Positions 3,517-58,134 of a stretch of 64,000 bases of DNA are shown here, piece by piece; the first letter of the stretch is position 1, and each line of letters begins with the position of its first letter. Source of the DNA: Escherichia phage NHEP1. Location of the stretch: the sequence record PQ511146.1. One strand, 5' to 3'. The notes below the pieces were generated by a model. That model did not search any database. It was not told the origin of the DNA and saw only the letters and a list, made by a program, of their open reading frames with translations. The translations under genes were made by a program, and so were the position numbers.

Positions 3517-3551
3517 AATAAATAAAAAGGGGAGGGGAGAACCCCCTCCCC
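3517..3551 (-). terminator. rho-independent terminator after major capsid gene
   Basis: Plus strand GGGGAGGGG(3529-3537)-AGAAC-CCCCTCCCC(3543-3551) with A-tract 3521-3528, i.e. a 9-bp GC stem followed by a U-tract on the minus strand. Confidence 0.65.
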
Positions 3552-3575: not shown

Positions 3576-4586
3576 TTAGCCACCGTTTTTCAGAGTTGCT
3601 TTAACAACCAGCTCTGGGCGGGTGTTAACTGCCAGCATAGAAGTTTCAGATTCAATCTTCTCTTCACGCAGGTATGCAGAGTGTTTATACCACATGTACA
3701 GTTCCTGTGCTGGAGTGTTTGCTTCGTTAACATCGTCTGCCGGAGCAAAGTGCAGCTGGAACATCTGATCAATACCCATCGGCAGAATGCGAGCTTCTTT
3801 CTTAGGAATATTGCCAGAGATATCTTCGATAAAGGTGATACCTTTATGTTCAAACACACGGTATACGCTGTCTTGACCGCCAGCACCCAGACGGCGACGC
3901 AGAGGTTCCTGAGCAGAGCCGTAATAGGTGTATGCCAGTTCTACCAGTGGGTGATGGGTAATAGCACTGAAGAACTCTGGTGAGCACAGAGCTACAATAC
4001 GATAGCCAGCTGCGTTATCACCAGCTTGCAGTGCGATGTGCAGACGAGCTTCTTCCAGAACCTCCATAGGATCCTGATCTGCTTTTGCAGGGTCGATCTC
4101 AACAGACTTCTGAGACACACCCCACAGAGTGTAGTAATCATACTGGCAGGTAGCGTCACCAGGCGCATAGGATTTACCCAGAATAGCCTGGAACAGCGCT
4201 TTCTCACGCAGTGCTTCATGAGAAACACGGATACGGCGAACAACGCGGGTTACTACATCCTGAACAGTTTTCGGAGCATCAGGGGTGAAGTAACGACGGA
4301 AGTTCTGAACATCTGCAGCAGTGATGCCTTTGTCCAGAGGGAAGAACGGGATGTTCAGGTTTTTAACCTGGGCACGTTCACTACCAACGTAGTTACGCTC
4401 ACCACCACGACGGCGTGCCGGAATGTCGGTTACAACTTCATCAACACGCTCGATCTGAGCAATTGTTGAGGTGCCGAGACGGGTTTCGAACAGATCCATA
4501 CCGGTAATCAGTCGGAATTGGCGCGGAACAAGGTCCAGAGTAGCACCTAAATCGACAATGCCAAATTCATCTTTACGAGTAATCAT
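3576..4586 (-). CDS. major capsid protein
   Basis: 336-aa ORF between scaffold/decoration genes and a strong terminator; lambda-like order terminase-portal-scaffold-(D-like)-capsid. Assigned by synteny and size, not by motif. Confidence 0.6.
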   Translation of the reverse strand: MITRKDEFGIVDLGATLDLVPRQFRLITGMDLFETRLGTSTIAQIERVDEVVTDIPARRRGGERNYVGSERAQVKNLNIPFFPLDKGITAADVQNFRRYFTPDAPKTVQDVVTRVVRRIRVSHEALREKALFQAILGKSYAPGDATCQYDYYTLWGVSQKSVEIDPAKADQDPMEVLEEARLHIALQAGDNAAGYRIVALCSPEFFSAITHHPLVELAYTYYGSAQEPLRRRLGAGGQDSVYRVFEHKGITFIEDISGNIPKKEARILPMGIDQMFQLHFAPADDVNEANTPAQELYMWYKHSAYLREEKIESETSMLAVNTRPELVVKATLKNGG

Positions 4587-10817: not shown

Positions 10818-10894
10818 TGGTCTCCACGGAGTGATTCGAACACTCGACCTCCTGATCCCAAATCAGGCGCTCTACCAAGCTGAGCTACGCGGAG
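10818..10894 (-). tRNA. tRNA-Pro (anticodon UGG)
   Basis: Manual fold of minus strand: 7-bp acceptor (one GU), D stem GCTC/GAGC, anticodon stem CCTGA/TCAGG, loop TTTGGGA, T stem GAGTG/CACTC with TTCGAAT loop, encoded CCA. Confidence 0.85.
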
Positions 10895-10905
10895 TATTTA
10901 TTATT

Positions 10906-10980
10906 TGGTGGCCCTGGGTGGAATTGAACCACCGTCTGGCGATTATGAGTCGCTTGCTTGAACCTTCCAGCTACAGGGCC
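10906..10980 (-). tRNA. tRNA-Met or tRNA-Ile2 (anticodon CAU)
   Basis: Manual fold: acceptor GGCCCTG/CAGGGCC, anticodon loop CTCATAA, T arm GGTGG-TTCAATT-CCACC, encoded CCA. Confidence 0.75.
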
Positions 10981-10981
10981 A

Positions 10982-11057
10982 TGGTGCTGATGGCAGGACT
11001 TGAACCTGCAACCTATTGATTACAAATCAATTGCACTACCAATTGTGCTACATCAGC
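10982..11057 (-). tRNA. tRNA-Thr (anticodon UGU)
   Basis: Manual fold: acceptor GCTGATG/CATCAGC, D stem GCAC/GTGC, anticodon stem ATTGA/TCAAT with loop TTTGTAA, T arm GCAGG-TTCAAGT-CCTGC, CCA. Confidence 0.85.
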
Positions 11058-11063
11058 AAAAGG

Positions 11064-11160
11064 TGCTAGGTGATGGAATCGAACCACCTATGTATTCAAC
11101 GACTACCTCGTCTATTTTCAGGATTAAAAATCCTCGCCCTTGCCAAAGGGCTTACCTAGC
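11064..11160 (-). tRNA. atypical tRNA-like gene (anticodon-loop-like UUUUUAA, possible tRNA-Lys-UUU variant or pseudogene) with about 30-nt extra region
   Basis: Good acceptor (GCTAGGT/ACCTAGC), D arm (GCCC-TTTGGCAA-GGGC) and T arm (GGTGG-TTCGATT-CCATC), but only a 4-bp anticodon stem (AGGA/TCCT), 97 nt long, no encoded CCA. Confidence 0.4.
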
Positions 11161-11258
11161 GCAATATGTCGACCATGTGGCTAGTCGGCGATGACGACTG
11201 TAACATTTGATAATCCGGTTCTGCTTCCGGCTTTCGCTTAATTACAAGGTCAACAATG

Positions 11259-11349
11259 TGGCGGAGAGTAATGGAATCGAACCATCATCGAGTCATCCTC
11301 AACGGGACGGTTTTCAAGACCGCTTGAGCACCATTGCTCCCTACCCTCC
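11259..11349 (-). tRNA. tRNA-Ser (anticodon UGA), class II
   Basis: Manual fold: acceptor GGAGGGT/ACTCTCC (one GU), anticodon stem GCGGT/ACCGT with loop CTTGAAA, long variable arm, T arm GATGG-TTCGATT-CCATT, encoded CCA. Confidence 0.75.
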
Positions 11350-11463
11350 TTTATAAATTACACTGATAATGACACTGATTTTCGAGCAGTTAGTGACTAG
11401 TATAAACGACGATAAATATCAATGTCATTATCTGTATGATTTATGCATTTAAAAATATAAATT

Positions 11464-11551
11464 TGGTGGTGAGTGATGGAGTCGAACCACCCGAATCGCA
11501 ATGATAACAGATTTACAGTCTGCCCCGCTACCCCTACGGAATTAACTCACC
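11464..11551 (-). tRNA. tRNA-Tyr (anticodon GUA), class II
   Basis: Acceptor GGTGAGT/ACTCACC, anticodon stem-loop GCAGA-CTGTAAA-TCTGT (as in E. coli tRNA-Tyr), T arm GGTGG-TTCGACT-CCATC, CCA; D arm could not be cleanly folded by hand. Confidence 0.7.
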
Positions 11552-11681
11552 TAAATACTAATATTTAAATTCTTTTTAAAATAGCTAGTGTTCTAACCAC
11601 TAACTATGAGGTATCGGTAAAGTGGTTACCGCCACTTGCCGAAGATTTACTCTGCTAAAGTAAGCTACATTAAAAAGAACT

Positions 11682-11756
11682 TGGCACCCCGTACTGGACT
11701 CGAACCAGTGTCAACGGCTTAGAAGGCCGCTGCTTTATCCACTAAGCTAACAGGGC
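11682..11756 (-). tRNA. tRNA-Arg (anticodon UCU)
   Basis: Acceptor GCCCTGT/ACGGGGT (two wobble pairs), D arm GCTT-AGTGGATA-AAGC, anticodon stem GCGGC/GCCGT with loop CTTCTAA, T arm ACTGG-TTCGAGT-CCAGT, CCA. Confidence 0.75.
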
Positions 11757-49850: not shown

Positions 49851-50137
49851 TGAAAGATTTGGTTAAGATCAAGATTAAAGACACCAATGGAGAACTCAGC
49901 CATTTTGGAATTAACGATGGTGACGAGCTGATCGCCCACCTGCCTACCAAGGAAGTTGTAAGCAAAGCGGTTGCCGGAGAAGAAGATGCAATGCAGGCTG
50001 CAGGTGTGGATGAAAGCTATGTAGCAATGTGTATGTGCCGAGATCAGGTTGTTCTGTATAAAGCGTATCGACCAAATGGAGCACCTGAGTGGCTTGTTTT
50101 CCGACCCGAAGGGTATGAAATTTTAGAGACGCTATGA
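49850..50137 (+). CDS. hypothetical small acidic protein
   Basis: 95-aa ORF, MKDLVKIKIK N-terminus. Confidence 0.4.
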   Translation: MKDLVKIKIKDTNGELSHFGINDGDELIAHLPTKEVVSKAVAGEEDAMQAAGVDESYVAMCMCRDQVVLYKAYRPNGAPEWLVFRPEGYEILETL

Positions 50138-50226
50138 TAAATCTTGCCAAGGTTGCAACGGCACTGTTAATTATTTGCTGGATAGTGACCTTGGCACTAT
50201 GTCTTGTATTTCATTAAGGGGGCTAT

Positions 50227-50490
50227 ATGAACATCTTGGTGTGGGTTGTAGCAGTAGCGTTTGTTGCGTGCCTCTCTTGTTGGGTTGCTGTGAGGATTTC
50301 TATAGCCACTCTTCGGAAATTAGGGTTCTCAGAGTGGGATATTAATATCCTTTCTTTTCGCAATGAGACAATCTCAGCCGCCCTGCTGTGTAAGAAGTTT
50401 AAGTGGGAACCTTGTGAGGTCATGAACTATCTAAGAACAGGAGATATTCCTGAGAGATTTAAAAAAGTTCTTGACGGCAAAGACAAATGA
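50227..50490 (+). CDS. small membrane protein
   Basis: 87 aa; N-terminal transmembrane segment ILVWVVAVAFVACLSCWVAV. Confidence 0.45.
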   Translation: MNILVWVVAVAFVACLSCWVAVRISIATLRKLGFSEWDINILSFRNETISAALLCKKFKWEPCEVMNYLRTGDIPERFKKVLDGKDK

Positions 50491-50499
50491 TAGTATAGT
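50471..50499 (+). promoter_or_regulatory. sigma70-like promoter
   Basis: TTGACG (50471-50476) N17 TATAGT (50494-50499). Confidence 0.5.
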
Positions 50500-50518
50500 G
50501 ACTAACAAGAGGTGAGGA

Positions 50519-50659
50519 ATGACTGATTTTACTGAAGCTTTAATGATGGCCTTATCTGTTTTAGCGCTATCGGTGTGTTTTGGGGCGTTATTCACATCTC
50601 TGGTTAAAGTTTTACATACCATATTCTCACCCAAGGAGCACAGTAATGACGAAGATTGA
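50519..50659 (+). CDS. 46-aa membrane micro-protein (unannotated)
   Basis: Own translation MTDFTEALMMALSVLALSVCFGALFTSLVKVLHTIFSPKEHSNDED; GAGGTGAGG RBS; overlaps next gene start. Confidence 0.35.
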   Translation: MTDFTEALMMALSVLALSVCFGALFTSLVKVLHTIFSPKEHSNDED

Positions 50660-50897
50660 CTTAAATGCTGGCGACCATGTTGTTGTCAAATGCATCGGGG
50701 ATTATCTTGGATTCACAATCGGCAATACTTACGAGGCAGTGGTGGCGAAGGTTTATCATGATAAAGTCCTCAGCCTTGTATTTGACTGCGATGATGACGG
50801 AGATGACCGTTACGTCTGTGAGGTGCTGGCACGTGACGATAGTGAAGACCAAAAATTCCTGGTTATTGAACTGAACGGTATTTTTGTAGAACGTTAA
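50646..50897 (+). CDS. hypothetical small acidic protein
   Basis: ORF 50580-50897 trimmed to ATG 50646 (MTKIDLNAGDHVV) after AAGGAG. Confidence 0.45.
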   Translation: MTKIDLNAGDHVVVKCIGDYLGFTIGNTYEAVVAKVYHDKVLSLVFDCDDDGDDRYVCEVLARDDSEDQKFLVIELNGIFVER

Positions 50898-50925
50898 TTT
50901 AAAACAATATAAGGAGACTCTTACT

Positions 50926-51231
50926 ATGGCTAAATCTAAAGTTGAACTGTTCACCTCTCTGCCTTCTGACATTGCAGAGCGTGATCGCCTCCGTAAAACA
51001 ATTGAAGAGCTGGTGGAACTTCAGCTTCAGATTAAAGATCTGAAAGATGCTATCAAAGATATTATTCTTGTCGAGAAGCAGGATCACTTGTATTCTCCTA
51101 AGTTTATCAAGTCATTGGTGGCTACCGAGTTCGATATCCGCTACGAAGCTGAAAAACGTCGAGCTAAAATCGAAGAGGAGGTTGAGCACATGTCTGAAGC
51201 AGACATTCTGTTCAAACGCTCTGCAGAATAA
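50926..51231 (+). CDS. hypothetical coiled-coil protein
   Basis: 101-aa ORF, AAGGAGA RBS, followed by a terminator. Confidence 0.5.
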   Translation: MAKSKVELFTSLPSDIAERDRLRKTIEELVELQLQIKDLKDAIKDIILVEKQDHLYSPKFIKSLVATEFDIRYEAEKRRAKIEEEVEHMSEADILFKRSAE

Positions 51232-51237
51232 TGACAA

Positions 51238-51262
51238 AGAGGGGTCTTGGCCCCTCTTTTTA
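51238..51262 (+). terminator. rho-independent terminator
   Basis: AGAGGGG-TCTTGG-CCCCTCT followed by TTTTT. Confidence 0.65.
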
Positions 51263-51284
51263 CTATCTATGAAGGAGATCAGAG

Positions 51285-51611
51285 ATGCTAATGCCGATTA
51301 CTGTAAAAGAACTAAATGAACGTGATGCAGGAGGCCTGTGGCCTGCACGGAAAATACGCTGCGTTTATATGAAAGAGAATCTTGAACACCTTGATCAACA
51401 GATTGCGGTTGGCGATATTTTCGAAGTTCTCTATTCTAATCGCCGCAACTGGGAAACCATTCAACCTTCCGGTTTTGTTCTTGCCAGACTTGATACCGGA
51501 GAAGTGATTATCCCCGGGCTGGATATTGTCTTCGAAATTATCCAGGAGTGGGATCCTGATAAGATTAAATATGAAGAGTTATTCGGCGAAGGTATTATCA
51601 AGCCTGTGTGA
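51285..51611 (+). CDS. hypothetical protein
   Basis: 108-aa ORF. Confidence 0.45.
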   Translation: MLMPITVKELNERDAGGLWPARKIRCVYMKENLEHLDQQIAVGDIFEVLYSNRRNWETIQPSGFVLARLDTGEVIIPGLDIVFEIIQEWDPDKIKYEELFGEGIIKPV

Positions 51612-51919
51612 GGTGGATTATGTCTACAACGACAGCTAAATACTCCTATATGCCAGCAACCTCAGCAGAAATAGACTTCAGTTTCGATGTGTTTCCATTG
51701 TTTGAGATAGTCCTGGCATACCCAACAATTCTATCTACTCCTGAATCACTTGTACCTGTTAAGTTGCAGAACGCTATGCATTCCATGCACTACAACAATA
51801 AATGCAGGCACAGATGGTGTCAGGACGAGGAAAAAGATCTGGAGAGTTTGAAAGATTTTGACAGTCACCTTTTGACACCTTTTAGTTACTCAAACCTAGA
51901 CAAGCCTTCATGGGTATAG
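51608..51919 (+). CDS. hypothetical protein
   Basis: 103-aa ORF, coupled. Confidence 0.45.
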   Translation: MRWIMSTTTAKYSYMPATSAEIDFSFDVFPLFEIVLAYPTILSTPESLVPVKLQNAMHSMHYNNKCRHRWCQDEEKDLESLKDFDSHLLTPFSYSNLDKPSWV

Positions 51920-51944
51920 CAAAGTATCAAATTTAAGGCACATA

Positions 51945-51970
51945 GGACGCTCTGTGGCGTCCTTTTCTTT
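51945..51970 (+). terminator. rho-independent terminator
   Basis: GGACGC-TCTGTG-GCGTCC followed by TTTTCTTT. Confidence 0.6.
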
Positions 51971-52481
51971 ATCTGGTGAACGATTCCATACCTTAAGCAG
52001 TTAATATCATTACAGAGCGTTTAAAGGCGGCTTACAAGCAACTCTCTATTTCGAGCGTAGCGAGAACGCACGTCCGTTTTGACCCAAATCACCATACGCT
52101 CGGATTTTAACCAAACCCTCGCGGTGTTTCTGTTGACACATTACCGCTCCTGAAATATGCTTATAGCATCGACACGTTCCAGCCATATGTCGATAAAGTC
52201 TTATTTTTTAAACATGTTGCCGGAATACTCACGGGTGGAACATGACCAACACACATGCATCTACAGAAACATCTGGAGGAGTGAAAGAGGAAAACTTCAA
52301 TTCTGAGGATTCTCTATCTCCGTCCCAGGTGGATCCTGAGGCTGATGACCTAACGTGGGAGGATATCATAGCCATCTGGTTCTCTATTATGCCTGAGCAC
52401 GAAGAGTTCAGAGGTGGGAGACTATAAAGCACCGAGCCCACATAAGTTTATCATGCTAAAGCATGGCCTGAAGAGGCAAAC

Positions 52482-52763
52482 GTGCATAATTCCATCGTAT
52501 TGGAACGTGTAAACCCTGTTCACACTCTCATTTCCAGAGGAGATTCCATGAAAATAGAGATATTTGGTGGGGCTGACAACACTCGTGGCCTGATTTACCT
52601 TGAATTCGATGAATCATACCTGCCAGAGGTGTTAAATATAGATGCTGTTGCGGAAGCCCTTGATGTAGACCCTAAAGATCTCTACTCCCGTGCTGAGATT
52701 GATGGTTGGGAAGAGACTCTGAACATTGATTTCAGTGAAGTAGTAGATGAACCTTTGGACTGA
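52482..52763 (+). CDS. hypothetical acidic protein (ERVNPxHTL motif; start uncertain)
   Basis: GTG start after AGAGG, or ATG 52551 after GAGGAG; N-terminal region paralogous to 10502-10771. Confidence 0.4.
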   Translation: MHNSIVLERVNPVHTLISRGDSMKIEIFGGADNTRGLIYLEFDESYLPEVLNIDAVAEALDVDPKDLYSRAEIDGWEETLNIDFSEVVDEPLD

Positions 52764-54191
52764 CACACAAGTCTGCTTTGCAGGTTTAGCTGCTCAGCTA
52801 AGGTTCTGGAGGCACCTATAACATCTTCCAACTAAATTTCCTACCAACACAGTTACTTACCTACCACACATGACTGTTTGCTTGTTTAGTGAGCAGTCAT
52901 CACTTGACATTCTTGCCTATCTTGATAAAATTAAGTTCTTCTCTTTTCTTTTACCGAGTAATTCGGGTTTTCTGTTCTCTTCGGTTTGAAGGGGTATGGA
53001 GATACACCTGAGTGAACAGGGTGAACAACCGAACCTTTAGCTATGGCATTAGCATGGCGAAGCGGACGGGTGACGAAAGAGGGGCCGGAGGACACCAGTC
53101 ACTGCCATATAGTATATGGGTGATAACCTGAAGAGTCTGAATAAGTGTTTAAGTACCAGTCAGAGGAAAAGGTGAATGGTAGCCGAAGGGGGAGGGGGGT
53201 TTCTTATATCTTTAATTTGTATACTTTATATACACTTGTAAACCAATTCAATTAGAATCTGTTTACCACACAAAGGGGATGGAGACAAATATCACCTATT
53301 AAACTTGAATTATTTATAGAAAATACCACAACACCCGTTAAGTCTTTGATTTTACACACAAATCTTACAAATATCCTACCTCCACATTTAACATACTTGT
53401 AACATATTCCATATCCTACCTGCCTGATCAATTTACTCCATCACATTCCCACATTTTCCCTGTCTGTACTACCCCACCCCCGCCGGGAGTCCCGTCATAT
53501 CTGGCTTTCCAGCAAATATCACACCAACAAATATCATCACCTGAAGAGGGTTTCATCCCATAATACCTGCCTTACCTGAAGAGCGCTTCATACACCACGT
53601 AAATTTTTTAATTGACCCCTCCCCGCCGCCAGAGAGGTTGGCTTTTCCCACACAGGCCTGAAGAGTCAGCCAGAAATATCTGAACAGGCAGTTATGTCCC
53701 GATTTTGTGCTTGTCCTACAGGAGTGCTGCCAGGCGGACGGAATGGGAATACTTCTCATTCTTATAATAATTCTCAAATATCGAGGCAGTGAGGCAAATT
53801 AATAGGCCAGGCCGTTCACACAGTGGCACAACATTTGCAATCTATCTTGTGTGGATGAATGAGAATACCTATCATTGTGAGAATGGTTATCATTACGGGC
53901 AATTTAACATAATACCCATTATGCGCACCACTGGCGATACATACAGGGATTGATAACATGGGTTACTGTTTACGCATATAACAATTATATTTCTTACTAT
54001 TTGTGTGGGATATAGTTAGCAACCAATAGATTAGATATTGACCTGCAGACTTCTGACCGTCCAGACGTCTAAACGCCCACACAACAAGGATTATACATAC
54101 ACTCCTGCATGTAACCAGGGCCGCAAAAATGCTACCATACCAGTTTGTAAATTTTTCATGCAGCACTTGACAAAGAGGAGAAAAACTTGTC

Positions 54192-54250
54192 TGACACAAT
54201 GTGACAATTTTGTCACTTTTGACACTTTTACCTTTGACACAATATGACAC
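54192..54250. repeat. cluster of TGACA(C) iterons
   Basis: TGACAC at 54192, 54220, 54235, 54245, GTGACA at 54201 and inverted copy TGTCAC at 54211, all within 59 bp. Confidence 0.75.
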
Positions 54251-54330
54251 AATAACGGCTGTTACTATTCCATATCTCACTGTTTACGCCTGAATAGTTT
54301 ACGCAAAAACTGTTTACACAGAGATGATAA

Positions 54331-54608
54331 GCCATGCCATTCGTTTGCATGAAAACAATTAACAAGATAACAATTGACAAGCTAACAGCCAACAAGCTGA
54401 CAGTTAATAAGTTAATAAGTTATGACATAATATAAAAGCAGGGCAACTATTAGAAGATCTATAGTTGCCTTGCTTGTTATGTCATGATTAACTAAATACA
54501 AGGCAACTATGATCTGAATAATAGATTGCAGACAAACTATCACGGGGGTGATTGTTACTGCTTTTATATTATGTCGCGACTCCGTCGCGCCATGCCATTC
54601 GTTTGCAT
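54331..54608. repeat. 20-bp direct repeats flanking an 18-bp inverted-repeat element
   Basis: Direct repeat GCCATGCCATTCGTTTGCAT at 54331-54350 and 54589-54608; inverted repeat GACATAATATAAAAGCAG (54424-54441) / CTGCTTTTATATTATGTC (54559-54576); inner palindrome GGCAACTAT...ATAGTTGCC (54442-54469). Confidence 0.75.
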
Positions 54609-55223
54609 AGTTGCCTTATTGTTACAGGTAAAACAATTACATTATTAATTATTTCTTATCTTTCTCTTAGTCATCTAATGATTCCAGTCAGTATAGTAAT
54701 GTACAGTAAACATTAGACGACTAAATATTTCTCTGTGTATAATAACTTATCGTGACAATTTCGAACTGTTTACGAAAAATGTTGACACCTGAGCTGATTT
54801 ATGTTATGCAGTTTACACGAATAATTATTTTATGCAGGTATTGACTATTCCGTTATTCTGTGGTTGGAATAAATACTTTGCAGACTATAGAATGGCGTGC
54901 GTACGTGAATTCTGAGATCTGGCGGCTATAGTTATACTCGATTTTTCGCGTAGAACACGCTTTCGATGCTGTGTAAGTGTATGACTTATAAAGATTTTTA
55001 GTTGTTGACAAGATATTGGAGATGTGCATCAGGTTAAAATTTGTGCAATAGCGGCATTACGTGCACTTTTGGGAGAGAAAACGGGTAAAAATGGCCCTGC
55101 TACCACACAATGAAAGATTATGCAATAGTTATTTTCCATGTATATTTGTACAGTATGTGGGATTGATGGCTAGTCAATTATTCCACTTGCCAGGTAGGGC
55201 CGTTTATGGTAGGAGAAGAGCAG

Positions 55224-55250
55224 ACAAAAAGAAAGGGGCCTTTAAGCCCC
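55224..55250 (-). terminator. rho-independent terminator at end of minus-strand early block
   Basis: Plus strand A-tract then GGGGC-CTTTAA-GCCCC; on the minus strand a stem followed by UUUCUUUUUGU, right after the 55271-55690 stop. Confidence 0.55.
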
Positions 55251-55270
55251 TTGATAATTCAGTTAAGAAA

Positions 55271-55690
55271 TTATAATGATTCGTATATTTCAAAAATCCG
55301 ATTTGCCAGGTCGTTACGGTAGCGGAATTTTTCATCGCGCTTGATCATTAAATCCTTATAGCCGTACTCTTTAAGCACTTCATTAACTTTATAGCGGCAT
55401 ACCTGCATATTATCTTGAGCGTCACCAATAAACTTGTTGCTGTGGTGCATTGCTTTAATTTCTTCTTCCAGGACCAGGGCAACTACCCGGACCGGATCAA
55501 GCTGATAGGCGGTAACATCTATGCGGCATTGTAGACGGCTTTTAACGTCTGCCACCGGATATACTGCAACCTCTTCCCCGTCAACATTGACAATAATTAG
55601 TTTACCATCGATTTCGAATCCTTTCGCCGCCGGACCGTGACAAAAAGCGTTATCAAAGCTATATGCCGGATTATCAGATTTAATGTTCAT
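55271..55690 (-). CDS. hypothetical early protein
   Basis: 139-aa ORF with AAGAGG RBS. Confidence 0.5.
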   Translation of the reverse strand: MNIKSDNPAYSFDNAFCHGPAAKGFEIDGKLIIVNVDGEEVAVYPVADVKSRLQCRIDVTAYQLDPVRVVALVLEEEIKAMHHSNKFIGDAQDNMQVCRYKVNEVLKEYGYKDLMIKRDEKFRYRNDLANRIFEIYESL

Positions 55691-55834
55691 GGTGTTTTTA
55701 CCTCTTAGTTAATTTTCTTACAACTTCCCTTCAAAAAAGAATATAGCAAAACTGCCGATCCCTGTCAACAAGGGATAGCATAATTTTTATGTGATCAAGG
55801 GGCTTTATCGCCCCTGACCATGCAACCTGTTGTA

Positions 55835-56098
55835 TTATTTGTTGCTCATCCAGTTTTCCCAAGCTGCCTGATAATCTGCCTCACTACGGCGGATCTCTTC
55901 TTGTTCTTCAAGCCGGATCTCTTCTTCCAGGTACCCCAAGATGTCAGCCTTTTTAGTCTGGCGCAACATCCAATCGTCTTTTTTGCGAGTAAAGATCTTG
56001 TACGCTTTCTCGCAAACTTCTTTTTTGCTACCTTTTTGGACTTCAAGAATTCTGTAAGCCATGTACTGAACTAGTTTGAGCTGGTCAAGACGTTTCAT
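55835..56098 (-). CDS. hypothetical early protein
   Basis: 87-aa ORF. Confidence 0.4.
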   Translation of the reverse strand: MKRLDQLKLVQYMAYRILEVQKGSKKEVCEKAYKIFTRKKDDWMLRQTKKADILGYLEEEIRLEEQEEIRRSEADYQAAWENWMSNK

Positions 56099-56161
56099 GA
56101 TGTTTTCCTCTTTATGGGGTTCTGGTTTGGTGGGGGCCTTTTGGCCCGTGTCATTATCTTA

Positions 56162-56434
56162 TTACTTACGGCGGCAAAATTCAAGTGTTTTTAATTGATA
56201 ATCTTCCTCAGCCTGGAGTACAACCGCCTCGATCATTTCGTTGGCATTGTTGAAGCCATACCCTTGAGCGAACTCATCCGCGCCACCTTTGTGATCATGT
56301 TCTGCGTTCATCGCTTCCACAAAATGGAATTCAAGATTATTGAGGTAGGGGCTTGATGTTCCGTCCTCTTTTTCGATGAGATCCCAGATAGCGTTAAAAC
56401 GTGATTCGACTTCTTGGTTAATCCAGCTTGACAC
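56162..56434 (-). CDS. hypothetical early protein (acidic)
   Basis: 90-aa ORF. Confidence 0.4.
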   Translation of the reverse strand: MSSWINQEVESRFNAIWDLIEKEDGTSSPYLNNLEFHFVEAMNAEHDHKGGADEFAQGYGFNNANEMIEAVVLQAEEDYQLKTLEFCRRK

Positions 56435-56639
56435 GGCGTTTTCCTCTCTTCTGGTTGTTGTGTGGGCACTTTTGCCCCTTCAAGGTAAATGCTACCCCAC
56501 CACCCGGCAGATGTCAACGGTTTTTATAGTTTTTTATATGACAGGCACCCCCGGTGATTGTCTCCCCCCGTCGCCAGGTGCCTGCCGTGAAATAAGCATA
56601 ACAAAAAACAGGACAAAAACAAGCCCTGTTTTGTAAAGA

Positions 56640-56843
56640 TTAGATGATCTGCATATCCTCCACGATAATTTCTAATTTCCAAATAAGATGATCTAAGCTC
56701 CCTGATAAAAATGATTCCGATACATAACCGCCATCGGATACCGTAGCAAGGATCTCGCCATTTGCTTGCTCTTTGATTTGAACATCCAGGCGGTTAGCCT
56801 TTGCTTTATTCAGGACGGCGATCAGGCGGTTAGCTGTAGTCAT
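56640..56843 (-). CDS. hypothetical early protein
   Basis: 67-aa ORF downstream of promoter 56894-56921. Confidence 0.45.
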   Translation of the reverse strand: MTTANRLIAVLNKAKANRLDVQIKEQANGEILATVSDGGYVSESFLSGSLDHLIWKLEIIVEDMQII

Positions 56844-56893
56844 GGTGTTTTCCTTCCAGTTGTGAGCGGCACTATTGCCGCCCTACGTGATAC

Positions 56894-56921
56894 ATCTTAC
56901 ACTATCCGGCACATCATGCAA
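56894..56921 (-). promoter_or_regulatory. sigma70-like early promoter plus conserved leader hairpin
   Basis: Minus strand TTGCAT N16 TAAGAT, then GTATCACGTAGGGCGG and hairpin GCGGCA-ATAG-TGCCGC (plus 56862-56880). Confidence 0.5.
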
Positions 56922-56927
56922 GCTATT

Positions 56928-57119
56928 TTATACTTCCTCACCTATAAAGTCGGATCTATTCTTCTCCGTCATGCGTTTAAGTAGTTCTTGCATGTTGCTG
57001 ATAGCTTGCAATGTATCTTCTTCCAGGCTTGAATCAAGATAATCAGGATCATTCTTCACCTTGCTATGATTGTGATACCGCAACGCTGCTAATACCTTTC
57101 TAACTTGTTCTGCATTCAT
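56928..57119 (-). CDS. hypothetical early protein
   Basis: 63-aa ORF. Confidence 0.35.
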   Translation of the reverse strand: MNAEQVRKVLAALRYHNHSKVKNDPDYLDSSLEEDTLQAISNMQELLKRMTEKNRSDFIGEEV

Positions 57120-57131
57120 TTTTATTACTCC

Positions 57132-57344
57132 TTAAAACCAGGTGCCAACCGTTTCCAATAGGTCACTGACTACCAGAACAACACCGATTAGCACATATTT
57201 AATCAGGAAGGGGATTAGCGCCAGCGCCGCTACTATGATCCCCATTGTCATGATTATTTTTCTCATGGTTAACGGTTCACGTAAGTTTTTTTTTCCCATC
57301 TTCTGATCCTCTGTTAGCATACGATAGCGATCACGCCGCCACAA
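57132..57344 (-). CDS. small membrane protein
   Basis: 70 aa; hydrophobic IIMTMGIIVAALALIPFLIKYVLIGVVLVV. Confidence 0.4.
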   Translation of the reverse strand: MWRRDRYRMLTEDQKMGKKNLREPLTMRKIIMTMGIIVAALALIPFLIKYVLIGVVLVVSDLLETVGTWF

Positions 57345-57577
57345 ATAGAAGGTAAATCAAAACGGTCTAACTTGCAAGCTATTTTTAAACGAAAGGCAAC
57401 ATAAAAGAAAATTTGCAAACAATCGATCATTGTGTTAGCTGTTGAAACGCTGCCAGCATTAAACACCACCCCGCCCACGGCGTTAAACGTTGCGTTACTC
57501 ACGAAAGCGGAAAGGCAAGCGATCACGGTGGCGATCATAATGTTGCGTTTTGTCAATCTGTAGATGATGTTTTTCAT
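57314..57577 (-). CDS. hypothetical membrane protein
   Basis: ORF 57314-57619 trimmed to MKNIIYRL because the longer start overlaps the promoter; hydrophobic IMIATVIACLSAF. Confidence 0.35.
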   Translation of the reverse strand: MKNIIYRLTKRNIMIATVIACLSAFVSNATFNAVGGVVFNAGSVSTANTMIDCLQIFFYVAFRLKIACKLDRFDLPSICGGVIAIVC

Positions 57578-57617
57578 TCTGTCATGTTGGCGGCAGCATT
57601 GCCGCCCTACGAAATAC

Positions 57618-57645
57618 ATTCTACCCGATTTGTAATTGTTGTCAA
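57618..57645 (-). promoter_or_regulatory. sigma70-like early promoter plus conserved leader hairpin
   Basis: Minus strand TTGACA (plus 57640-57645) N16 TAGAAT (plus 57618-57623), then GTATTTCGTAGGGCGG and hairpin GGCGGCA-ATGC-TGCCGCC. Confidence 0.55.
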
Positions 57646-57646
57646 A

Positions 57647-57916
57647 CTAATTTTTCAAGCTCGACCAGTCAAAACACGGCGGGATCTCGTTAAAACTTGT
57701 GCCCTGTAAAGCACATAATTTTTTAGCAATAGCCGCCGTGACCTGGCGCTGTACGCGCGGATCTGCTACTGATTGGAGAAAGTAGGCGGCTTTATACGTG
57801 ATCATGCTTTCGCCTGTTTCCTTGCTAACATGATGCACTATTTTAGCCTTATCATCTTTTACCAGGGTGTAACCGGATTCGATGGCCTTGATTGCAACGT
57901 CCAATGATATTTTCAT
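57647..57916 (-). CDS. hypothetical early protein
   Basis: 89-aa ORF. Confidence 0.45.
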   Translation of the reverse strand: MKISLDVAIKAIESGYTLVKDDKAKIVHHVSKETGESMITYKAAYFLQSVADPRVQRQVTAAIAKKLCALQGTSFNEIPPCFDWSSLKN

Positions 57917-57963
57917 GATTTATCTCTTTATTGATGGCGGGGAATACTCCCCCGCCTTATTAA

Positions 57964-58134
57964 TTACTCTTCATCGTCGCCGTTATAGTATTCAATGCCG
58001 TTTTCATCGGTTACGGTAATATTAACGCCACCGATAGCAACACGATCACGGGCAAACGTCATGGCTTCATTTAAATCTTCAGACCAAAAAATATTGTGAC
58101 CTTTGCGCGATACGTAAAACATAGTCGGGATCAT
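57964..58134 (-). CDS. 56-aa micro-protein (unannotated)
   Basis: Own translation MIPTMFYVSRKGHNIFWSEDLNEAMTFARDRVAIGGVNITVTDENGIEYYNGDDEE downstream of promoter 58189-58216. Confidence 0.35.
   Translation of the reverse strand: MIPTMFYVSRKGHNIFWSEDLNEAMTFARDRVAIGGVNITVTDENGIEYYNGDDEE

Follow-up and report, generated by a model that had tools for sequence, protein, structure and literature searches.

The window considered here is a 64,000-nucleotide stretch of the genome of Escherichia phage NHEP1 (sequence record PQ511146.1), a Vequintavirus, that is, an rV5-like Escherichia coli myophage of about 136 kb. It holds a gene-free stretch of about 2.5 kb, flanked on the left by a coding sequence (CDS) at 52548-52763 and on the right by a gene at 55271-55690 on the - strand. 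The annotation of relatives draws the same picture: the final rightward gene stops at the equivalent of 52763 and the first leftward gene is 55271-55690 or, where that gene is missing, the next one beyond it. The description of rV5 in 2013 already contained a 'non-coding' box without open reading frames (ORFs) at 104013-106618 (PMC3606486). The switch in GC skew is located at the gene-free region because the direction of transcription changes there, which is the cause to which the rV5 authors attribute it (PMC3606486). This gap very probably represents the terminal region of the Vequintavirus chromosome, with a direct terminal repeat (DTR) at 53733-54191 as its central element; since the record opens at another point, the window shows it as a concatemer-type junction.

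The region 52770-55060 has matches in 121 phage records, and the interval between the flanking genes is bare of annotation in nearly all of them. In 98 of the records the match, at 80-98% identity, extends over 80% of the region or more. The matching records are E. coli or Shigella Vequintavirus, save 19 labelled 'Campylobacter phage'. These 19 (MG0656xx, host C. jejuni) match 52770-55260, the listed ones at about 87-93% identity, and are probably contaminant or mislabelled genomes. The preliminary description, made from the letters of the window alone, had found no credible ORFs here, and the substitution pattern bears this out. In an alignment of 22 genomes including the window phage, which underlies the divergence, gap and coding figures given below, non-synonymous changes exceed synonymous ones in every ORF of at least 30 amino acids within 52764-55270. 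Most of these ORFs are broken in relatives, and the few intact ones sit mainly where variation is almost nil. The control, CDS 52548-52763, behaves as a gene, with 267 synonymous against 157 non-synonymous changes and an intact frame in 20 of 21 genomes. A conserved protein-coding gene was looked for at this position in relatives and none was found; the region stays non-coding.

The evidence that carries the interpretation comes from the ends of related records. Terminal repeats of 458 bp have been reported for EdH4 and HdK5 (Korf et al., 2019, PMC6563267), and one of 459 bp for Gotham (Dias et al., 2020, PMC7471380). A base-for-base check showed that the records of EdH4 and HdK5, whose ends are PacBio read ends, carry an exact 459-bp repeat at each end and that of YN3 an exact 458-bp repeat, all mapping to 53733-54191. 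Gotham, where the element is annotated as a repeat_region, and ECP2309 match the DTR query at 1-459, with two places in each record. Identity between the window segment and the repeats of EdH4, HdK5 and Gotham is 95.7-96.5% over the full 459 bp, with the same two boundaries, and by homology to the EdH4, HdK5 and YN3 records each end of the virion DNA is expected to carry this sequence. Sequence comparison establishes 53733-54191 as the homologue of the published 458/459-bp DTR; virion DNA would therefore start at 53733 and end at 54191. The left virion end begins GGCGGACGG... and the right virion end closes ...AAAACTTGTC. Six further records end or start exactly on one of the two boundaries, the matching record ends as a whole come from several laboratories, and several records begin at one identical position inside the region. 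The right boundary is the exact end of ECP2303 and, in reverse, the start of Pr121LW; Aya begins at 54191, also in reverse, and version 2 of the bov10K2 and bov22_2 records begins at 53733. The genome-end junction or packaging site that the preliminary description had put forward is thereby supported, whereas the two other members of its four-way interpretation, a miniature inverted-repeat transposable element (MITE) and a replication origin on the evidence then cited, are not.

The window contains a single copy of the DTR, as do 111 of the 119 matching records (127 places in all). Within the alignment the DTR has no gaps and a divergence of 6.0%, similar to the adjacent gene, and indel hotspots lie directly outside both of its boundaries. 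Shigella phage CM1 carries an exact 523-bp tandem duplication whose second copy begins at 53733, the left DTR boundary, and in I29 the copies of an exact 546-bp duplication are linked by a 120-bp palindrome. Being exact duplications, these large 'insertions' were rejected as mobile elements; they look like assembly or linearisation artefacts, that of CM1 like a relic of joining a linear contig. The duplications occupy 1425-2470 of the CM1 record and 1027-2166 of the I29 record, and hypothetical proteins are annotated on both. An ordinary assembler overlap differs from these ends: in 241Ecol014PP it measures 99 bp and lies at an arbitrary site.

The features of the gap, from left to right, are as follows.

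52870-52901, no strand assigned: 7-bp inverted repeat ATGACTG...CAGTCAT at the start of an ultraconserved block, just upstream of the promoter (near-invariant columns in 22 genomes).
52904-52931, + strand: near-consensus sigma-70 promoter directed toward the right end of the genome, with TTGACA, a 16-nt spacer and TGaTAAAAT.
52932-53200, + strand: ultraconserved sequence downstream of the promoter, about 260 nt almost invariant.
53201-53340, no strand assigned: AT-rich stretch, GC 28%, directly after the G-tract.
53341-53717, + strand: C/A-rich spacer in which three conserved CCTGAAGAG copies, AAATATC-type repeats and TACCTGCC repeats share a single orientation.
53718-53732, no strand assigned: conserved 15 nt ACAGGAGTGCTGCCA abutting the left DTR boundary (alignment slices).
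53733-54191, no strand assigned: DTR of 459 bp in single copy, as at a concatemer junction (record ends of relatives; published repeats).
53859-53896, no strand assigned: Fur-box-like 18-bp tandem repeat inside the DTR (TGAGAATACCTATCATTG / TGAGAATGGTTATCATTA), annotated as repeat_region in naswa and Alma.
54192-54254, + strand: TGACAY array with about 10-bp phasing, from the first base past the right terminus.
54279-54320, + strand: (A/C)TGTTTACRC array, repeating every 15-16 bp, whose copy number varies.
54331-54350, + strand: first copy of a 20-bp direct repeat (GCCATGCCATTCGTTTGCAT).
54354-54422, + strand: AACAAG-type and AGTTAATA short tandem arrays of hypervariable copy number.
54424-54575, no strand assigned: nested inverted-repeat unit, with outer 18-bp perfect arms at 54424-54441 and 54558-54575 and an inner palindrome at 54436-54475.
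54589-54618, + strand: second copy of the 20-bp direct repeat, then a fourth GGCAACTAT box (inverted, 54607-54615).
54619-55232, no strand assigned: conserved non-coding stretch, rich in AT (GC about 36%), in which GTTTAC occurs twice more.
55233-55252, - strand: intrinsic terminator of the leftward gene block that contains gene 55271-55690 (terminator scan; annotated in EdH4, HdK5 and Murica).

Both boundaries of the DTR are thus bordered by short repeated motifs. On the left, CCTGAAGAG, which had been overlooked in the preliminary description, has five + strand copies at 52467, 53127, 53540, 53575 and 53657. Three to four copies are kept in 21 of 22 genomes while their flanks vary, and I29 has seven by way of its duplicated segment. 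Right after 53717 there is a hypervariable indel site; the inserts found there in relatives measure 0-57 bp and consist of hairpin-forming or duplicated sequence. On the right, the boundary reads ...AAAACTTGTC/TGACAY (the slash marking the terminus) in every aligned genome; beyond it the units are kept and their number and spacing vary, the first TGACAY copy being invariant and strict TGACAY copies ranging from 1 to 6 among genomes. The clustering of TGACA at 54192-54250, as originally described, is real, with six copies in 59 bp (five direct and one inverted) as compared with a maximum of four in 300 Markov simulations of the window. For GTTTACRC, five exact + strand copies were located (53968, 54282, 54297, 54312 and 54811) between 53966 and 54830, where 'six or more' had been counted. 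Near-variants occur at 53260 and 54766, and six of the eight copies present on both strands of the window fall within 52400-55300. Five of the six window copies of CTGTTTAC are also in the region (binomial P ~5e-7). All the repeat families lie well above chance by simulation or binomial test. Across the arrays at 54192-54420, pairwise divergence amounts to 27%, with 22% gaps.

Further inside the right end lies the nested inverted-repeat unit with its two direct repeats. The 20-bp perfect direct repeats reported at 54331 and 54589 are there, and so is the 18-bp perfect inverted repeat, the second arm of which had been placed one base off. GGCAACTAT boxes occur inside the unit at 54442 (+), 54461 (-) and 54502 (+) and beside it at 54607 (-), with no other copy in 64 kb (P ~2e-6), which suggests that a DNA-binding protein also uses the unit. 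Folded as single-stranded DNA, the unit reaches -46.3 kcal/mol (z = -9.8); it includes a small hairpin at 54540-54553, and a second hairpin (54576-54588) adjoins its outer arm. The inner palindrome, annotated as a terminator in Murica and Alma, forms on the - strand a 15-bp stem followed by UUUUAUAUUAU, and the hairpin with its U-tract has z = -6.0. Both this element (54436-54475, -) and 55252-55233 (-) have the properties of Rho-independent terminators, and together they probably shield the chromosome end from leftward read-through. The unit is present in single copy in 117 of 121 records, always at the same locus, and is found in no other phage group. FV3 has exactly one 20-bp direct repeat with nothing of what lies between the repeats elsewhere, and with it three of the four GGCAACTAT boxes are gone; the simplest reading of this sequence is a deletion between the two direct repeats. 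The unit is therefore dispensable for a viable phage. In V18 the left direct repeat is lost and the unit kept. The AT-rich DNA beyond includes an almost invariant 50-mer at 54800-54850. The best promoter candidate within 54192-55232, at 54714-54743, was rejected as a conserved promoter because its -10 hexamer varies among relatives.

The best conserved part of the neighbourhood is a 376-bp block at 52870-53245, also overlooked before, which shows a mean pairwise divergence of 1.8% as compared with 6.0% in the adjacent CDS, and 96-99.7% identity in all 118 records that contain it. The 7-bp inverted repeat at its start is operator-like. The promoter scored 11/12 plus the TG in the promoter scan; its -10 is invariant and its -35 intact in 21 of 22 genomes. 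The sequence downstream contains a hairpin with a T-run at 52954-52966, the CCTGAAGAG copy at 53127 and a G5AG6 tract at 53188-53199 followed by TTTCTT. This tract is the only one of the G-run/A/G-run type with runs of at least five in 64 kb, a shorter GGGGAGGGG being present at 3529; the length of the G-runs varies by one either way, and one genome has an inserted T. Two C-tracts, CCCCACCCCC (53472-53481) and CCCCTCCCC (53616-53624), lie downstream of G5AG6 and are complementary to it, and long-range pairing with it in a transcript or in single-stranded DNA is possible. A hammerhead-like reading of CUGAAGAG...GAAA at 53128 was rejected on inspection, because helix II would have a G-G mismatch at its base, helix III is lacking and Rfam gives no match.

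Inside the DTR, the tandem repeat at 53859-53896 has conserved arms and a variable 3-nt spacer, and resembles the E. coli Fur box, a likeness that serves as a lead and not as a test. Against the Fur consensus, the site at 53879 scores 15/19 and is among the two best in 64 kb, and four of the 38 sites scoring at least 13/19 fall in the 459-bp DTR.

The element belongs to a known kind. That of EdH4 and HdK5 (PMC6563267) and of Gotham (PMC7471380) is the same as the DTR of the window; the published accounts give the length of the repeat only and make no link to the rV5 box (PMC3606486), the arrays, the boundaries or the ultraconserved block. More broadly, the arrangement resembles a junction of the T7/T3 type, a class with fixed ends and transcription-coupled processing, in its short exact repeat at both ends, the gene-free DNA beside the ends, the flanking short arrays and the promoter reading into the junction. 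It differs in belonging to a 136-kb myovirus without a phage RNA polymerase, in having no sequence similarity to those phages and in the length of its repeat, 459 bp as compared with 160 bp in T7, and processing is ascribed to it by analogy. Because the phage has no RNA polymerase of its own, any coupling to transcription would need the host enzyme. In T7 itself short repeat arrays are said to flank the terminal repeat, as Dunn and Studier reportedly described in 1983. Terminase recognition sites made of repeat arrays include the pac hexamer arrays of P1, the cosB R sites of lambda and the pacL/pacR boxes of SPP1. Like these, the TGACAY array repeats a motif of 5-6 bp at intervals of about one helical turn, immediately beside a proposed terminase cut; in contrast, those phages are headful or cos packagers and do not package by terminal repeats, and TGACAY is a putative site whose strict copies go down to one in some viable relatives.

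Among less related phages, the Phapecoctavirus (phAPEC8-like) Schickermooser is reported to have a 328-bp terminal repeat (PMC6563267). In the record of another Phapecoctavirus, Mt1B1_P17, the first 1.2 kb are gene-free, the first gene inside is the 139-amino-acid ORFan of window gene 55271-55690 (89% amino acid identity), and GAGAATnnTTATCATT motifs, similar to the Fur-box-like repeat of the DTR, occur near the record start (at about 60, 240 and 980); the genus belongs to a different subfamily, and its non-coding DNA is otherwise unrelated. The non-coding DNA of the distant Septuagintavirus A73 is likewise unrelated save for short motifs, which come in the same order as here, CCTGAAGAG, TGCTGCCAGGC and G5AG5AG5. 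Compared with window positions 53655-53735, A73 (reverse complement of about 3840-3980) has GGCCTGAAGAGGC, about 90 nt on TGCTGCCAGGC, and then G5AG5AG5. TGCTGCCAGGC is an 11-mer spanning the left DTR boundary that taken alone could be a chance match (E ~0.2), and no Septuagintavirus record ends at the candidate TGCTGCCAGGC site. TGCTGCCA/GGC might be a cut-site motif shared with Septuagintavirus and Phapecoctavirus.

The explanations that compete with a fixed chromosome end concern either the whole gap or one of its parts. If packaging were headful and the genome circularly permuted, the region would be merely a pac site or preferred start and the '459-bp repeats' assembly conventions, and several observations weigh against the terminal reading in this way or in others. 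PhageTerm calls four bov phages 'circular permutated' (PMC8407724) and BpE1AUH headful (PMC13211470), and the related Certrevirus phages were reported as circularly permuted (PMC7344957). The ends of the window phage are taken from relatives 95-99% identical across the DTR, the two cut sites share no sequence, and FV3 and bov10K2 each have a single strict TGACAY copy, which speaks against an essential role of the entire array. A permuted genome is nevertheless improbable, because several independent submissions agree on both end nucleotides, 459 bp apart, PacBio read ends of EdH4 and HdK5 among them; assembler overlaps behave differently, as 241Ecol014PP illustrates, and two of the phages called permuted (PMC8407724), bov10K2 and bov22_2, have been re-opened at 53733 despite that call. 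An insertion of the MITE type at 54331-54608, with terminal inverted repeats and a target-site duplication, would account for perfect 18-bp arms enclosed by perfect 20-bp direct repeats and for FV3, which looks like an empty site. It deserves very little credence. Such elements occur in multiple dispersed copies, but this one has one copy per genome and none outside Vequintavirus; a 20-bp duplication far exceeds the usual length of target-site duplications; the left direct repeat sits some 70 bp outside the left arm instead of adjoining it; V18 kept the unit after losing that repeat; and FV3 represents a clean loss. That the gap hides real genes, overlooked or broken by sequencing errors, is the least credible proposal of all. 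Short hypothetical proteins are indeed annotated in it in some records (Murica150, APCEc02_065/066 and I29_150), but their position and length differ from record to record, the ORFs there do not behave like the control CDS, and the gap is reproduced in 121 independently sequenced genomes.

For the origin of replication, the evidence cited in the preliminary description does not hold. The DnaA-box-like TGTGGATGA at 53850 exists, but the 9-mer occurs four times in the window and the site lies in one of the least conserved parts of the DTR, and it is therefore a chance string; the exact DnaA box TTATCCACA is absent from the region. Direct-repeat arrays and AT-rich DNA, as expected around iterons, are present, but the copy number of the arrays varies freely, and FV3 does without the inverted-repeat unit and the GGCAACTAT boxes in it. 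The ultraconserved block allows a different proposal, namely that 52870-53340 is a transcription-primed origin in which RNA from the promoter ends or stalls at the G5AG6/T-run and a stable R-loop or hybrid G-quadruplex beside the AT-rich unwinding stretch primes DNA synthesis. Its conservation far above the roughly 6% divergence seen elsewhere, the conserved promoter and the G-tract unique in 64 kb with its adjoining AT-rich stretch would all fit, and rV5 has genes for a primase-helicase like T7 gp4 and for a family-A polymerase (PMC3606486). Human CSB2, G5AG7 plus a T-tract, terminates transcription to make a replication primer (PMC5027508; PMC3488243, PMC4176368). The order of promoter, downstream G-tract with T-run and AT-rich DNA is like that of CSB2 (PMC5027508) and ColE1 RNA II, and the T7 origins made of a promoter plus AT-rich DNA were compared as well; the polymerase is different, however, and there is no homology, so that the case is one of resemblance. 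Moreover, the skew switch is accounted for by the direction of transcription (PMC3606486), the G-tract tolerates changes of length and an inserted T, and nothing comparable was found outside the genus: blastn at E <=1 against 50,697 phage records matched the block or the region in Vequintavirus only. Such an origin, which could coexist with a genome-end function, is at present a rather unlikely proposal. About equally doubtful is that the block gives rise to a stable non-coding RNA, some 260 nt long from the promoter at 52904 to the G-tract/U-run, which would act in trans on the host or on the expression of phage genes. A conserved promoter followed by nearly invariant sequence without a coding signature speaks for it, as does a minimum-free-energy fold that allows its pyrimidine-rich 5' end to base-pair to the purine-rich 3' end. 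In contrast, the fold is not convincing (z = -1.5 on the + strand and -0.35 on the - strand), and Rfam 15 gave only noise at E <=10 in a permissive scan of 52760-53740 and, in an E-value scan of 50000-58000, only a sub-threshold sraA outside the region. Covariation support is lacking because there is too little variation, the only two variable spots of the block not being paired with each other. No match was found in E. coli genomes, and IMG/VR, searched by way of the neighbouring protein and a 21-mer, yielded just the same two Vequintavirus contigs.

Taking the gap as the chromosome end, a working scheme can be drawn by analogy with T7/T3-type phages. Replication or recombination would make concatemers with one repeat per junction, and terminase would cut at fixed sites at the two boundaries, the left one within the conserved ...GTGCTGCCA/GGCGGACG... 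and the right one within the conserved ...AAAACTTGTC/TGACAY...; processing would duplicate the repeat. More tentatively, CCTGAAGAG on the left and the 10-bp-phased TGACAY on the right may be cis-acting sites through which the junction is recognised and processed, while the spacers and copy numbers of these motif sets might drift by slippage. The flanking gene blocks are transcribed outward, toward the ends, and about 1.0-1.1 kb of gene-free DNA lies inside each end; leftward transcription would be stopped short of the end by the inner palindrome and the terminator at 55233-55252, and the promoter at 52904 would direct host RNA polymerase toward the junction. In T7, pausing of the polymerase at the concatemer junction recruits terminase (PMC3276506), and T7 phagemids require an origin, the pac site and the terminal repeat (PMC13236587). 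A bolder version, less probable still than either proposal for the block alone, makes the block a new phage cis-element in which transcription by the host polymerase toward the end forms an R-loop or G-quadruplex that primes replication or triggers terminase processing, with CCTGAAGAG and TGACAY as a recognition code.

As to the neighbouring genes, Pfam and PHROGs gave no function for the proteins they encode. The gene at 55271-55690 (-) encodes a 139-amino-acid ORFan (phrog_12277) without a Pfam domain, which is about 85% identical in Septuagintavirus and missing from EdH4, HdK5, FV3 and Alma. At the other side of the gap, just past the stop codon of the last rightward gene, the window phage and B9-1 alone have a 15-bp segment (52771-52785), which is absent in 19 of the 20 other aligned genomes and partly absent in one more. 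Elsewhere in the window, ARAGORN predicts at 11062-11160 (-), within a tRNA cluster at 10818-11756, a tRNA-like gene of 99 nt whose anticodon has four bases (atcc). It may be a tRNA that contains an intron or is of the frameshift-suppressor type, or else a false call.

Chromosome ends with short repeats of the T7 type are already known and this very element is documented in relatives. What is new with respect to the cited Vequintavirus literature is the link between the rV5 box and the chromosome end, the anatomy of boundaries and arrays, and the ultraconserved block, the one piece that could be new biology. Most of the 121 public Vequintavirus records were opened at arbitrary points and leave the gap unannotated; recognising 53733 and 54191 as physical ends allows their correct linearisation and annotation and is of use in engineering these phages and rebooting their genomes. 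It also bears on the transduction risk of these candidate therapeutic phages, because generalized transduction is usually regarded as less likely with fixed-end than with headful packaging. How ends are recognised and processed in large myoviruses with short terminal repeats is essentially unstudied, and the region offers candidate elements for it: the conserved contexts of both proposed cut sites, the phased motif arrays, the promoter that points at the junction and the block, whose divergence is less than a third of that of the adjacent gene.

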